A stretch of 64,000 bases of DNA from Polyangiales bacterium (lineage in GTDB: Bacteria > Myxococcota_A > Polyangia > Polyangiales > Houyiibacteriaceae). Location: NCBI GenBank assembly GCA_965227405.1, contig OZ245758.1:2996338-3060337 (forward strand), given 5' to 3'. How positions within the stretch are numbered: the first letter of the stretch is position 1; every line of letters begins with the position of its first letter. A program made the translations under genes and the position numbers. Positions 28,113 to 35,064 of this stretch are shown piece by piece. The notes under the pieces were generated by a model that was not told where the DNA came from, did not search any database, and was given only the letters and a program-made list of their open reading frames with translations.

Positions 28113-29021
28113 ATGCGCTGGGTGGCTTGCTTGTTGTTCGCGGGGTGCGGACTCACTCTGGATCTAACTCCGCCGGAGGAAGACGGCGGGGTGTTCGATG
28201 CATCACGCGATGCGGGACGCGGTGATGCGTCGGCGGATGCAGGTGTGGATGGGTCGCTTGATGGGAACGTCGCCGATGTGCCGGTGCGAGACGTAATGAT
28301 CGATGCCGTGTTCCGTCCCGATTCCGACGCGGAGTGCTCCGGCGACTTGGACTGCGCGACGTCCGACTGCACGCGGTGGGGTTGCGTCGACGGTCTCTGC
28401 GTAGCGCTCGGCCCGATCGCATGTGAGCCGCTTGTGGACGCGTGTCACGAGTACACCGGGTTCTGTACCGATGACCGGTGCGACCAAGATCTGATCGATT
28501 TCGACGGCGACGGAGAGGCACCGATCGAGTTGGGAACATGCGGCACTGACTGCGACGACGACGATCCCTTCGAGGCGGAAGGTATCGTCTGCGGTGAAGA
28601 CTTCGACGACGATGGCTTCGGCAGCAAGGACGCGTTCTTTCCGTTGTGTGGTGCAGACGTTGCCTGTCCCGAAGGTTACGTCGAAGACATTTCAGACTGC
28701 TGGGATGACATCCCCGACGGTTTCGATCCTGGCCCCGGCGATGCAAACCCGGACGCCAACGAGCGGTTCTTTGGACAGCAGCGAGGCAACGGCACGTTCG
28801 ACTGGAACTGCGACGGGATGATCACCACGAACAACGGCCGGCGCCTGTTTATGGGATGTGGTGGGTTCGATTCGCCGCCCGGCTCGTGTCAGATGCAAAG
28901 CGGTTGGACGTCTCGCATTCCCGACTGCGGTGAGATCGAGGACTTCACCTCGTGCGTTGCCGGTATGGGCGGGCGTTGCATGATGATCCTCTCTCCCGAG
29001 CGGATTCAGCTCTGCCGCTAG
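28113..29021 (+). CDS. Cysteine-rich lipoprotein with MopE-like putative metal-binding motif
   Basis: Signal MRWVACLLFAGC. Motif CGTDCDDDDPFEAEGIVCGEDFDDDGFGS resembles the Cys/Asp-rich putative metal-binding repeat (MopE-like). Many Cys, Asp-rich. Confidence 0.45.
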   Translation: MRWVACLLFAGCGLTLDLTPPEEDGGVFDASRDAGRGDASADAGVDGSLDGNVADVPVRDVMIDAVFRPDSDAECSGDLDCATSDCTRWGCVDGLCVALGPIACEPLVDACHEYTGFCTDDRCDQDLIDFDGDGEAPIELGTCGTDCDDDDPFEAEGIVCGEDFDDDGFGSKDAFFPLCGADVACPEGYVEDISDCWDDIPDGFDPGPGDANPDANERFFGQQRGNGTFDWNCDGMITTNNGRRLFMGCGGFDSPPGSCQMQSGWTSRIPDCGEIEDFTSCVAGMGGRCMMILSPERIQLCR

Positions 29022-29763
29022 GACTGTCTGACCACGCGAACAAACGCGCGAATCCCCTGCAGTAGCTCCCGATCCTCGGTCAGTTTGGCCATCGAGCGTT
29101 CCAGTTCGACCAAGACGCGATTGACCTTCTCTTCGTAGCGTCGCTCGCGTAGCCGGGCATCTTCGTCCCGCTTCAGTCCGTCCGACTCGAGTCGTTCGTC
29201 GACCTCGGTCAGCGAGGGCAGGTCCACGTTGTCAATCCGACGCAGGATCTCTTCCGCGTGTTCAACCCGCATCTTGAGCCCTTGGACATCCTCGCGCGGA
29301 TAGCGTGCACGCTCTCGAAGCTCGGCGATTCGTTTGCGAAGATGACGGTACACCGCGCCCATCGGTCGCAGCACCATTGACACGATGTAGAAGCCGGCGA
29401 AGAGGTAGCCGATTCTGCCTTGCGTGAAGTACGTCACCAACGCGACGCAGGCTGCTCCCAACACATGAAGTCCGATCGCGCAGGTAAGGAGTCGCGGTGC
29501 CACTTTCTTGGCGAGGTTGCGATCACCTTCGTCGATCTTGATGCCGCGTGCTTCGCTTTCGCGTTGGTCGATCGCAAGCTCACGTGCTGCAAAGTACAAG
29601 TCCCACGGCAACCAGAGCGTTACCCACAACCCGATCAACGCGAGCGTGGCCATAAGGATGTCGAGTGCGCCGCTGCCGTCGATCCAGCCCATCCATCCGC
29701 TGAAGATTGAGACGACGGCCGTGAGGCTGATCAGCCACATGAAGGTCGGTCCTGTGCGTGTCA
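29018..29763 (-). CDS. Hypothetical membrane protein with C-terminal coiled coil
   Basis: Start at MTRTGPTFMW (ATG 29763). 3-4 TM helices, then a charged coiled-coil region. The longer upstream ORF extension is GC-frame noise. Confidence 0.4.
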
Positions 29764-29895
29764 TGCAGCAGGTTGAGCAATGCACGTGCCTCTCCAAAAA
29801 CGCCTTGTTTTGTAAGGTGTTTTTGGGGCGATCGACATCGAGTGCCCATCGATCCGACACGGGGTGATCGTCGCTACCAAGGCGTATGATGGCAC

Positions 29896-33004: not shown

Positions 33005-33145
33005 GGCCACCTCCTGCGCGTGACTAGAGCAACGCTCATGCCGACCGGTTTGCCCTGGTTGTCGGAGGACGCGCATCGGGTTGTGCACCAAAGCAGTGCA
33101 TGCCGCTTCGTTATCGATCGCTCGAACCGGTATGCTCGCGGTGGG

Positions 33146-34036
33146 ATGCGTATCGGGATCGCTCTGCTGCTTTTGGTCACAAGCGTGACCGCATCTGCGC
33201 AGAATCCACGCCAGTTGGTGCGACAGGCGATCGCCGCGTTGCAATCGGGTGATCACGCAACAGCCCACGACCTCTTCATGCAGGCGTATGCATTGGAGCC
33301 CAGTGCTCGCATTCTCCGTGGAGCTGCGACGGCTCGCTACGAGGAACAGCGTTTTGTCGAGGCGTATCGTCTCTTTCAACGTGCGCTCAGCGAGACCGAG
33401 CGACCGCTCAACCCACGACAACAGCGCGAAGTCCAAGCCCAGGTCGAACAGGTCGAAGCGTTTGTTGGCAAGTACACCTTTGCCGTCGATCCACCAACCG
33501 CCGAGATCACGATCGATGGGCGAGCCATCGAATCGGAGCCCGATGGATCTGTGCTTGTGGCCAGTGGCGACCACGAGTTGGAGGTTCGGGCGGAAGGGTT
33601 CCACACCTCGCGACGTGCCTTGAGTGTTGTCGGTGGTGAAGTCGAGACGATGACGATTGGTCTCGAAGAGCGCGTTGAAGCACCTGCACCTGCACCGCGT
33701 CCGACCGAGAAGAGCATCGACGGGTTGGGTTGGGGACTGATTCTGGGAGGGAGCGCTGCGATTGCAGCAGGCGTCGGAACGCTGATCTGGTGGGTGAATC
33801 GCATTGGCGAAGTGGACCGCTGCGAAGGTGTGGAGCCCAACGAACGTTGCCTGAACTTGTCGACCTTGGAGTCGCAACGTCGAGGTGCGGCAACGATCAC
33901 GATAATTGTCACGCTCACCGGCGCGTTTGCGCTCGTAACAGGTATTCTCCGGTGGTCGTGGAGCGACGAACGTCCAGTCGTAGCGTGCGGAGCGGATCCC
34001 TCTGGGGCTGCGTGCTCGTTGGACTGGCGCTTCTAG
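33146..34036 (+). CDS. Secreted/membrane TPR-like + PEGA-domain protein, paralogue of 7339..8793
   Basis: Start at MRIGIALLLLVTSVTASAQ (signal peptide). TPR-like helices. PEGA domain TFAVDPPTAEITIDGRAI...HELEVRAEGFHTSRRALSV. Two C-terminal TM segments. Confidence 0.55.
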   Translation: MRIGIALLLLVTSVTASAQNPRQLVRQAIAALQSGDHATAHDLFMQAYALEPSARILRGAATARYEEQRFVEAYRLFQRALSETERPLNPRQQREVQAQVEQVEAFVGKYTFAVDPPTAEITIDGRAIESEPDGSVLVASGDHELEVRAEGFHTSRRALSVVGGEVETMTIGLEERVEAPAPAPRPTEKSIDGLGWGLILGGSAAIAAGVGTLIWWVNRIGEVDRCEGVEPNERCLNLSTLESQRRGAATITIIVTLTGAFALVTGILRWSWSDERPVVACGADPSGAACSLDWRF

Positions 34037-35064
34037 GCTGTACCGACGCCCAGATCGTTCGTGAGCGCGAAGGCGGAGTCGACGCACCGCCTGTCGACGC
34101 AGGACCCGACACCGCGCTGCCGGACGGTTGTGTGCCTGGGATGGTGACGATGGGTGAACCTGCAGGTTGCATGTTGGAACGTTGGCCTGCACGACCGGTC
34201 TGCAGCGCCGACGCGATGGATGTTGGCCTTCTTGAAGCTGCGCTGTTGAATCCACAGCTCACGGCCACAGGTTTCGATCTCGACGGTGTGTGCACGGGGG
34301 TGGGTGGAACACCACCGAGTTGTGCCGGCTCGATGCTCGGCGATGGATCTGCCCAGGGTGTCGACAACGCGTTTGCGTCCGAGATCGTGCCCGGTATCGG
34401 GTTGGTCGTTGCGGGGTTCGACACGTTGTTCATGAGCGCGGTGACTGAAGGACGCGGAACGCCCTTGTTGCGCATCGAAGGGTGGAACGGCGAACCAGAC
34501 GATGCACAGGTCACTGCATCGATGGGTGCTGCCGCGGTGATGCCGCCGGTCGTGCCCGCGTGGGATGGCACCGACGTGATTCCGGTGGCCGACACCTCGT
34601 TTAGCGGTGGTGTCCCGGTGCTCCAAGACACGAGCGCGTATGTGGCTGGTGGTGTGTTGGTCATGGAATGGCCGACGGAGCACGCGTTGGTGTTCGAATC
34701 TGGAGGACGCGCGATTCGGATGTTGCTGCGCGATGCGCGACTGGTTGCCGAGATCGATTTCGGCGTCGGGCTGACGGTGACGAACGCTCAGATCGTCGGA
34801 CGTTGGGCATCGTCCGATGCGATTGCGAGTTTGGACGACTTGGGACTGTGTGAAGGCAGCACGGATCCCATGGTCGTGATGCTTCGAACCATGGCGTTGC
34901 TGCTCTTCGACGGATCGGTCGACGTTGCGGCGCGCGAAGCCAACGATGAACTCGACGGAATGTCACCGTGCGTGGCGATCAGCGTCGCGCTCGGGTTTGG
35001 ATCGAGTGCGACCGTGGCATGGGGAGCCGAGGCGCCAGCGATCACAGCAACCGCGTGCCCGTGA
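33985..35064 (+). CDS. Hypothetical lipoprotein
   Basis: GTG start giving (M)RSGSLWGCVLVGLALLGC lipoprotein signal. Gly/Val-rich beta-type sequence. Start overlaps the end of the previous gene by about 50 nt (uncertain). Confidence 0.4.
   Translation: MRSGSLWGCVLVGLALLGCTDAQIVREREGGVDAPPVDAGPDTALPDGCVPGMVTMGEPAGCMLERWPARPVCSADAMDVGLLEAALLNPQLTATGFDLDGVCTGVGGTPPSCAGSMLGDGSAQGVDNAFASEIVPGIGLVVAGFDTLFMSAVTEGRGTPLLRIEGWNGEPDDAQVTASMGAAAVMPPVVPAWDGTDVIPVADTSFSGGVPVLQDTSAYVAGGVLVMEWPTEHALVFESGGRAIRMLLRDARLVAEIDFGVGLTVTNAQIVGRWASSDAIASLDDLGLCEGSTDPMVVMLRTMALLLFDGSVDVAAREANDELDGMSPCVAISVALGFGSSATVAWGAEAPAITATACP

Follow-up and report, generated by a model that had tools for sequence, protein, structure and literature searches.

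A short bacterial homologue of the major vault protein, encoded by a stand-alone gene with a conserved sigma-54-type promoter element in a Polyangiales bacterium

To our knowledge, the function of the vault is still unexplained decades after its discovery, and the bacterial homologues of its shell protein, the major vault protein (MVP), have never been studied experimentally. The eukaryotic MVP (rat and human; PDB 4V60, 9BW5 and 9R86) is a protein of ~860–890 amino acids (aa) built of nine tandem β-sheet repeats, beginning with R1, an SPFH-like shoulder bearing the "keyhole" loop LSxG(R/K)PK, and a very long cap helix; it assembles into 39-fold half shells and a closed cage of 78 copies. Recent structures of the human vault define the PARP4 MINT site, an NAD+ pocket (PMC12280208) and the C13 cap. 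Bacterial MVP homologues have been noted in silico in Myxococcales, Cytophagales and Oscillatoriales (bioRxiv 10.1101/872010 and 10.1101/2023.11.10.566534, with Myxococcales members mentioned in the available passages of both); those passages contain no analysis of gene neighbourhood or promoters, and the words "neighbor", "operon" and "genomic context" do not occur in the available text of the latter. Here we describe an MVP homologue of 668 aa encoded at 30998..33004 on the minus strand of a 64,000-nucleotide (nt) stretch of DNA, hereafter the window, from a Polyangiales bacterium (GenBank assembly GCA_965227405.1, contig OZ245758.1, positions 2,996,338 to 3,060,337 of the forward strand). 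The gene adds a short member with about six repeats to this family known in silico, and the new details are a negative neighbourhood result and a sigma-54 signature upstream of it.

The coding sequence was delimited by the map of open reading frames (ORFs), by direct reading of the sequence and by Pfam. Its product matched the Pfam family MVP_shoulder (PF11978) at aa 364–473 with an E-value of 1.5e-27 (score 96.4 bits, cut-off 25), and matches to Vault_3 (7.7e-11) and Vault_4 (1.3e-5) were likewise above the gathering score, which bears out the identification of the gene as an MVP homologue in the initial annotation of this DNA. Searching PDB sequences with phmmer returned only eukaryotic MVPs, the best being the human protein (3.8e-30), in which residues 295–763 aligned to aa 150–601 of the window protein. 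An AlphaFold2 (AF2) model computed from 75 homologues had a predicted local distance difference test (pLDDT) score of 78.8, and the top 12 Foldseek matches of this model in the PDB were all eukaryotic vault MVPs (E 3e-34 to 5e-28), followed by the crystal structures of murine R1–R7 (3e-14). Eukaryotic MVPs are the best matches of the window protein in sequence and in fold alike; there was no bacterial vault structure among the listed Foldseek matches to the PDB, and no solved structure of, or experiment on, a bacterial MVP turned up in the literature and structure searches.

From the R1-like N-terminus to the cap helix, the domain order is that of the eukaryotic protein. According to the AF2 model and Pfam, aa 1–335 (nt 32000–33004, minus strand) form approximately six five-stranded β-sheet repeats (AF2 units at aa 8–335), compared with nine in eukaryotes; the tandem repeats, including an R1-like N-terminus with the VGP and NTER motifs, are supported by the Vault_3 and Vault_4 matches, the model and Foldseek. 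They are followed by the SPFH-like shoulder at aa 336–473 (nt 31586–31999; α/β fold at ~340–473 in the model, and Pfam), which has a conserved LSTG(R/K)PK loop, and by a single uninterrupted cap helix of 124 residues in the model (aa 474–597, nt 31214–31585). This helix aligned with the human cap helix as far as human residue 763, and is shorter than its counterpart in the rat vault (~155 residues). The conservation profile marks aa 598–668 (nt 31001–31213) as a bacterial-type C-terminus with an invariant SPLAILGG motif, common to the bacterial forms and apparently distinct from the eukaryotic C-terminus; the alignment with the human protein ends at aa 601, and the model gives two short helices there with a pLDDT of ~50–55.

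The residues of the NAD+/ADP-ribose pocket, which lies behind the keyhole loop of the human vault (PMC12280208), are for the most part changed. The window protein keeps R504, K506 and L517 (R346, K348 and L359) and has a conservative change of D521 to N364, while R507, P508, H509, R511, F522, W545, P565 and K573 are replaced and R437 falls inside a human-only insert. The core of the keyhole loop, G-(R/K)-P-K, does not vary among the bacterial members. Of the MINT site, the C13 cap and the pocket, this core is the only part recognisably shared.

In 1.84 billion representative sequences, a profile search recovered 1600 clusters (50% identity), of which 708 had E ≤ 1e-30. The bacterial relatives belong to the same superfamily and most of them are 800–950 aa long, whereas the window form has 668 aa and, in the alignment, is missing one or more repeats that the longer bacterial forms carry at the place between its aa 180 and 190. 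In one long bacterial MVP (P0150, alignment columns ~400–600) there are three near-identical tandem copies of a repeat segment of ~35 aa, YVR.A.KLEEG.YC.L....G.KR.V.GP.VVFP, which is absent from the window protein. Given the repeat gap in the one protein and the triple copy in the other, repeat number varies within the family, and it appears to change by tandem duplication or deletion. Tandem MVP paralogues were also looked for and rejected, as the apparent second copies were short fragments.

The vault gene stands alone on the minus strand and is monocistronic by geometry, with a divergent gene upstream and a convergent gene downstream. Reading the sequence directly, 1 bp separates its stop codon TGA (30998–31000) from the stop codon TAG (30994–30996) of the convergent ORF of 366 aa. 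This arrangement is a plain reading of ORFs, to which a chance statistic does not apply. GC content is uniform across the locus, and a scan of 29700..33300 for intrinsic terminators gave matches at chance level. Pfam scans took in ~48 called proteins of the window and found no TROVE, PARP, VWA or WD40 domain in any of them; neither the minor vault proteins (TROVE/WD40/NACHT; VIT/VWA/PARP) nor a vault RNA was found within the 64 kb, and Rfam gave no family at gathering score across the whole window and none at E ≤ 1 in 27000..37000. In this the locus differs from the eukaryotic vault, since no counterpart of TEP1, PARP4 (VPARP) or vault RNA was found in the window. PADLOC and NCBIfam returned nothing meaningful for the MVP and eight of its neighbours. 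The gene arrangement, the monocistronic layout and the lack of an adjacent vault partner given by the initial annotation therefore stand, while its statement that the only VWA protein lies about 19 kb away could not be confirmed, as none of the proteins scanned with Pfam had a VWA domain, those lying 19 kb to either side included.

To compare gene neighbourhoods, 64 loci (±10 kb) containing MVP relatives were assembled with one genome per GTDB species. They came mostly from Myxococcota metagenome-assembled genomes (MAGs), with a few labelled Planctomycetota or Acidobacteriota and single MAGs labelled Clostridia and Methanosarcinales. When 12 window neighbours were searched against these loci with tblastn, none recurred, save for one gluQ-type tRNA synthetase match. 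When all ORFs of 60 aa or more were clustered against one another, only two families were present in more than 10 loci, namely Ser/Thr kinases (27 loci) and histidine kinases (11 loci), both ubiquitous and at background density, and relaxed clustering within ±4 kb had the same outcome. The Ser/Thr kinases, which turn up within 10 kb in 27 of the 64 loci irrespective of strand and distance, were rejected as partners: there are 3 kinases per 64 kb in this window alone, so their recurrence near MVP is background. Clusters of methyltransferases, glycosidases and PilZ proteins near MVP were also set aside, each being limited to one clade. Four annotated neighbourhoods (L065, L066, L068 and L070) were wholly unlike each other and the window. 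In six other MVP loci, the only Rfam match at gathering score was a tmRNA, ~5 kb from the MVP gene of L054, and downstream of MVP conserved non-coding matches were found between close relatives only.

The MVP gene is thus stand-alone: across ~70 related loci, neither a protein-coding neighbour nor a known RNA gene is conserved beside it. The initial annotation had proposed such a comparison as a check on its idea of adjacent cargo, and the neighbourhoods show no conserved partner, an outcome that it had named as counting against the idea. Encapsulins and bacterial microcompartments are also protein shells encoded in bacterial genomes; their folds are unrelated to that of the window MVP, and they are encoded beside cargo with targeting peptides, whereas no cargo or partner gene is conserved alongside MVP, so the logic of a shell with adjacent cargo does not hold here.

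What is conserved lies directly upstream of the gene. The 141-bp spacer (33005..33145) between MVP and the divergent gene holds a Shine-Dalgarno sequence, AGGAGG (33010..33015, minus strand), read directly 5 nt ahead of the MVP ATG at 33004, together with a sigma-54-type element and a candidate upstream activating sequence. The −24/−12 consensus of sigma-54 promoters is TGGCACG-N4-TTGCW. The element GGCATGAGCGTTGC (33029..33042, minus strand), 24 nt before the ATG, has the GG-N10-GC spacing and agrees with this consensus at 10 of 12 positions (cGGCAtG-agcg-TTGCt). It is one of two matches to GGCAYG-N4-TTGC in the 64 kb, against 0.61 expected, and would place the start of MVP transcription near 33017.

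The 400 nt upstream of MVP were then compared across the loci. Short matches just before the start codon were found even between loci whose MVPs are 52–65% identical, and on inspection these resolved to a GGCAC-N5-TTGC-like element. The pattern GGCAY-N6-YGC was present within 150 nt upstream of MVP on the sense strand of 42 of 62 loci and on the antisense strand of 0 of 62, against a background of 2.5% in random 150-nt segments from the same loci; among 96 other called genes of eight annotated loci, 6% have the element upstream. The strict form was found in 11 of the 62 loci against a background of 0.15%. When MVPs were clustered at 75% identity, the element was carried by 27 of 30 Myxococcota lineages, and it was absent from six clusters labelled Planctomycetota, Gemmataceae, Acidobacteriota, Blastocatellia, Clostridia and Methanosarcinales. 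Positions that the pattern leaves free follow the sigma-54 consensus as well, with G after GGCAC in 28, T before TGC in 26 and A or T after GC in 37 of the 42 loci. Thus, across Myxococcota a sigma-54-type element is kept at MVP while the genes around it are completely exchanged, and the supposition of the initial annotation that the spacer carries the promoter has gained a conserved, promoter-like element in its favour. A literature search found nothing joining "vault protein" with "sigma-54" or "enhancer binding protein". In six Polyangiaceae/Labilithrix-type loci (L017, L019, L022, L045, L046 and L054), the −12 GC lies only ~13–19 nt before the estimated MVP start codon, implying either that the mRNAs have no leader or a very short one, or that the true start codons lie downstream of the estimated ones.

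Further upstream, at 33083..33100 (minus strand) and ~50 nt from the −24 GG, the spacer contains a candidate upstream activating sequence, TGCACTGCTTTGGTGCAC, an inverted TGCAC/GTGCA which includes TTTGGTGC. Across loci, the TTYGGNGC/GGTGCA motif ranges from 40 to 85 nt upstream of the −24 GG; TTYGGNGC itself occurs on the sense strand of 22 of 51 loci against a background of 2.3%, with positions clustering at 50, 72 and 81 nt. Enriched 7-mers in these upstream regions include CCGTTTC, AACGGAG and TGCACCA, with p-values down to 4e-12, and the motif is often palindromic in other loci, as in CGGTGCACTGCACCG, GTGCAGCCCTGCAC and GGCGCTCC-N5-GGAGCGCC. In the window and its relatives L069 and L074, the −24/−12 element and the GGTGCA repeats stand out as conserved islands in an otherwise diverged spacer. 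We infer from these sequence features that the motif may be the site of an NtrC-type bacterial enhancer-binding protein (bEBP). Adjacency of a bEBP gene to MVP was tried as a recurrent feature and rejected, being seen in 2 of 64 loci only.

The psp operon, with its PspF-activated PspA, is a stress assembly under sigma-54/bEBP control and can serve as a regulatory analogy only. There, as is proposed here, a large self-assembling structural protein is under an enhancer-dependent, normally silent promoter; the two systems share no homology, and the psp activator gene is adjacent to its target, whereas only 2 of 64 MVP loci have an activator within 10 kb. In being predicted to act under a bacterial sigma-54-type promoter, the window gene also differs from eukaryotic MVP.

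Given these results, we propose that the locus encodes a short bacterial MVP of about six repeats functioning as a stand-alone gene, with sigma-54 control and self-assembly included in the proposal, and we estimate the probability of this reading at roughly 65%. The new family member would probably be a self-assembling shell under inducible sigma-54 control. RpoN holoenzyme would transcribe the gene with the required help of an unlinked NtrC-type bEBP bound at the GGTGCA/TTYGGNGC repeats, and the shell would be produced only upon a signal, e.g. stress, starvation or development; the conservation of the promoter suggests a shell made on demand. By analogy with eukaryotic MVP and SPFH cages, the modelled protein may assemble into a dome through lateral shoulder and cap-helix contacts, and two domes would then probably pair via the very highly conserved R1 to form a cage shorter than the eukaryotic vault. 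Any cargo would be recruited in trans from genes elsewhere, or would consist of small molecules, rather than being encoded by the adjacent genes.

Several points weigh against this proposal. At two positions (cGGCATG) the window element differs from the consensus TGGCACG. The counts overstate the independence of the loci, which are phylogenetically related, yet 27 of 30 lineages with a mutual identity of at most 75% are positive. Neither rpoN nor a bEBP gene is present in the window, and ORFs with GAFTGA and Walker A motifs occur within 10 kb of MVP in only 2 of 64 loci. The closed cage is deduced from a monomer model only, with low confidence in the C-terminal 70 residues. As only 3–4 of 13 residues of the human NAD+ pocket are kept, nucleotide binding is not transferable from the human protein. 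Finally, the lack of a neighbouring partner does not prove the lack of cargo.

A wider form of the proposal, which we put forward tentatively as a possibility, is that the Myxococcota shell belongs to a conserved sigma-54/bEBP regulon, in which a single orthologous activator, encoded apart from MVP, would recognise the GGTGCA/TTYGGNGC repeats and, in stress or development, turn on MVP along with partners or cargo that are likewise unlinked. If this were true, the bacterial vault ancestor would have been an inducible nanocompartment, and definition of the regulon would be the first direct route to the primary function of vaults.

As to the promoter, GGCAY-N6-YGC might instead be a repressor site, a 5′-untranslated-region element or a by-product of GC-rich sequence, with MVP transcribed from an ordinary promoter. 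The element was found by pattern matching only, and in some loci it is just 27–33 nt from the estimated start codon, leaving almost no leader. A scan of 29700..33300 detected no sigma-70-type promoter either, though that scan did not cover myxobacterial promoter types. We nevertheless consider this explanation unlikely, since the element is strictly strand-specific, is rare both in random segments and upstream of the control genes, keeps the exact GG-N10-GC spacing and fits the sigma-54 consensus at its unconstrained positions.

With regard to assembly, the window protein could form a single dome on the inner membrane, in the manner of HflK/C, flotillin or stomatin, rather than a closed vault of two halves. 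SPFH cages (HflK/C, flotillin, prohibitin, stomatin, erlin and QmcA) also use an SPFH-like domain followed by a coiled coil to build a closed dome; flotillin, HflK/C, prohibitin, stomatin and erlin form the second tier of structural matches after MVP, at E ~1e-6, the shoulder of the window protein is SPFH-like, and its C-terminus appears to differ from the eukaryotic cap ring. These cages are, however, membrane-anchored and have no N-terminal repeat barrel, whereas the window protein has neither a transmembrane nor a lipidation signal, and its charged N-terminus (MADVRERD) is clearly homologous to eukaryotic R1. In eukaryotic vaults, the R1, shoulder and cap regions make the waist, lateral and cap contacts, respectively. 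Across the 75 homologues, R1 is the best-conserved region (0.88, with 30 of 56 positions invariant), followed by the shoulder and the C-terminal SPLAILGG region (0.78 each), while the cap helix is lowest (0.60), a pattern from which we infer probable selection on assembly surfaces. With the waist contact so well conserved, a membrane-bound single dome seems to us quite doubtful.

The initial annotation had named two adjacent genes as cargo candidates, and we considered whether these could be lineage-specific cargo or anchors of the shell. One is the convergent 366-aa gene (29896..30996, plus strand), and the other encodes a protein of 248 aa with a transmembrane segment and a coiled coil (29018..29764, minus strand). 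Both stay beside MVP in the closest relatives, L069 (MVP 88% identical) and L074/L075, the only loci in which the window neighbours recur. There, collinearity extends over an entire block of at least 17 kb, including the SCP2, bPH_2, gluQ-RS and AsnC genes, so the synteny of the two candidates is part of this larger collinearity, and in 64 other genomes neither is found within ±10 kb of MVP. In the otherwise collinear L074, Transposase_31 and DUF4351 genes (2867..4134), absent from the window, are inserted between SCP2 and bPH_2.

Only 5 homologues of the 366-aa protein, each 70% or more identical to it, were found among 5.8 billion proteins, as against more than 578 homologues for MVP. The 366-aa protein had no Pfam, NCBIfam or PADLOC match. 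Its AF2 model, made from five sequences, had a pLDDT of 44.5 and was unusable. Its conservation is protein-like, and from sequence comparison the ORF reads as a real gene, a lineage-restricted orphan that is no conserved partner of MVP. For the 248-aa protein, 20 homologues were found, the named ones coming from Sandaracinaceae or unclassified Myxococcota MAGs; its family reads as restricted to Sandaracinaceae, and in three more distant genomes (L076–L078) the homologue sits apart from any MVP.

The 248-aa gene, too, carries a sigma-54-type element, GGCACGTGCATTGC (29777..29790, minus strand), 12 nt before its ATG, which points to an almost leaderless sigma-54 transcript. The upstream motif of the MVP type was not found ahead of this gene, and the −24 GG of its element is lost in L074. 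An equivalent element with the same spacing is present in L076 and L078, 27 nt before the ATG (~position 7001), where the protein is 50–55% identical. Eukaryotic vaults have recently been described in contact with membranes, in the available passages of PMC13100048, which would suit a membrane anchor. Given the isolation of both genes from MVP outside the closest relatives, and the differing promoter of the 248-aa gene, a role of either as cargo or anchor is very unlikely, and this part of the initial interpretation is not upheld.

On the other side of MVP, the divergent gene (33146..34036, plus strand, ATG at 33146) encodes an envelope protein with a signal peptide and weak Pfam matches to TPR and PEGA. 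Beyond it lies the gene of a lipobox (LLGC) protein of ~367 aa with no known domain (~33961..35064, plus strand), which is syntenic in close relatives only. Between MVP and the TPR+PEGA gene, L069 has a Ser/Thr kinase gene (region 3304..5465) and L074 a gene of 466 aa without a Pfam match (region 11164..13461). Adjacency of the TPR+PEGA gene to MVP in the window is therefore incidental, and it seems that the window locus lost an intervening gene or that its relatives gained one. A pair of Ser/Thr kinase and TPR-PEGA genes is also found elsewhere in the window, at 7342..10052 (minus strand).

Least probable of all is that the MVP gene is a mobile or phage-derived element or a component of anti-phage defence, for although three viral contigs carry distant MVP-like ORFs (35% identity), in one case next to genes for terminase and portal, and gut-phage MVPs are reported in passages of 10.1101/2023.11.10.566534, PADLOC gave no match for MVP or its eight neighbours, GC content is uniform, no tRNA (Rfam) and no integrase-family Pfam match was seen in the window, and the gene's vertical distribution throughout the lineage, together with its conserved promoter of host type, points to a resident chromosomal gene. 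The viral ORFs, of 895–916 aa, are from IMG/VR contigs (L071, 9420..12104; L073, 5426..8173; L072, 2..1621). That of L071 comes just after genes for terminase, portal, lysozyme-like and transposase-like proteins and is followed by a DNA methyltransferase gene, and L073 derives from a viral contig of 131 kb.

Other genes of the window include two adjacent ones for giant proteins on the plus strand. The first (15678..20756) encodes an α-2-macroglobulin-like protein of 1693 aa (MG2, A2M and MG4), and the second (20768..25387) a protein of 1540 aa with only a weak CarboxypepD_reg match. A cluster of RCC1-repeat (β-propeller) genes is located at 1230..1991, 4569..5729 and 6368..7333 (plus strand), with small cysteine-rich ORFs in between. 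At 55388..55951 (minus strand), a gene for a membrane protein of 188 aa adjoins that of a trypsin-PDZ protease; its match to SLATT_1 is weak (E 0.002) and below the cut-off.

For the biology of bacterial vault-like shells, these findings have several consequences. Because the gene is stand-alone in ~70 genomes, its neighbours are a poor starting point, and the search for cargo should not begin with them. The number of repeats, about six here and more in relatives of 745–946 aa, suggests that the height of the barrel can evolve, which is of interest for engineered vault nanocontainers. The conserved sigma-54-type promoter element, together with the candidate activator site, offers a handle by which the activator, its signal and the regulon may be found and the particle induced at will, and this regulatory signature opens the biology of such bacterial shells to experiment.

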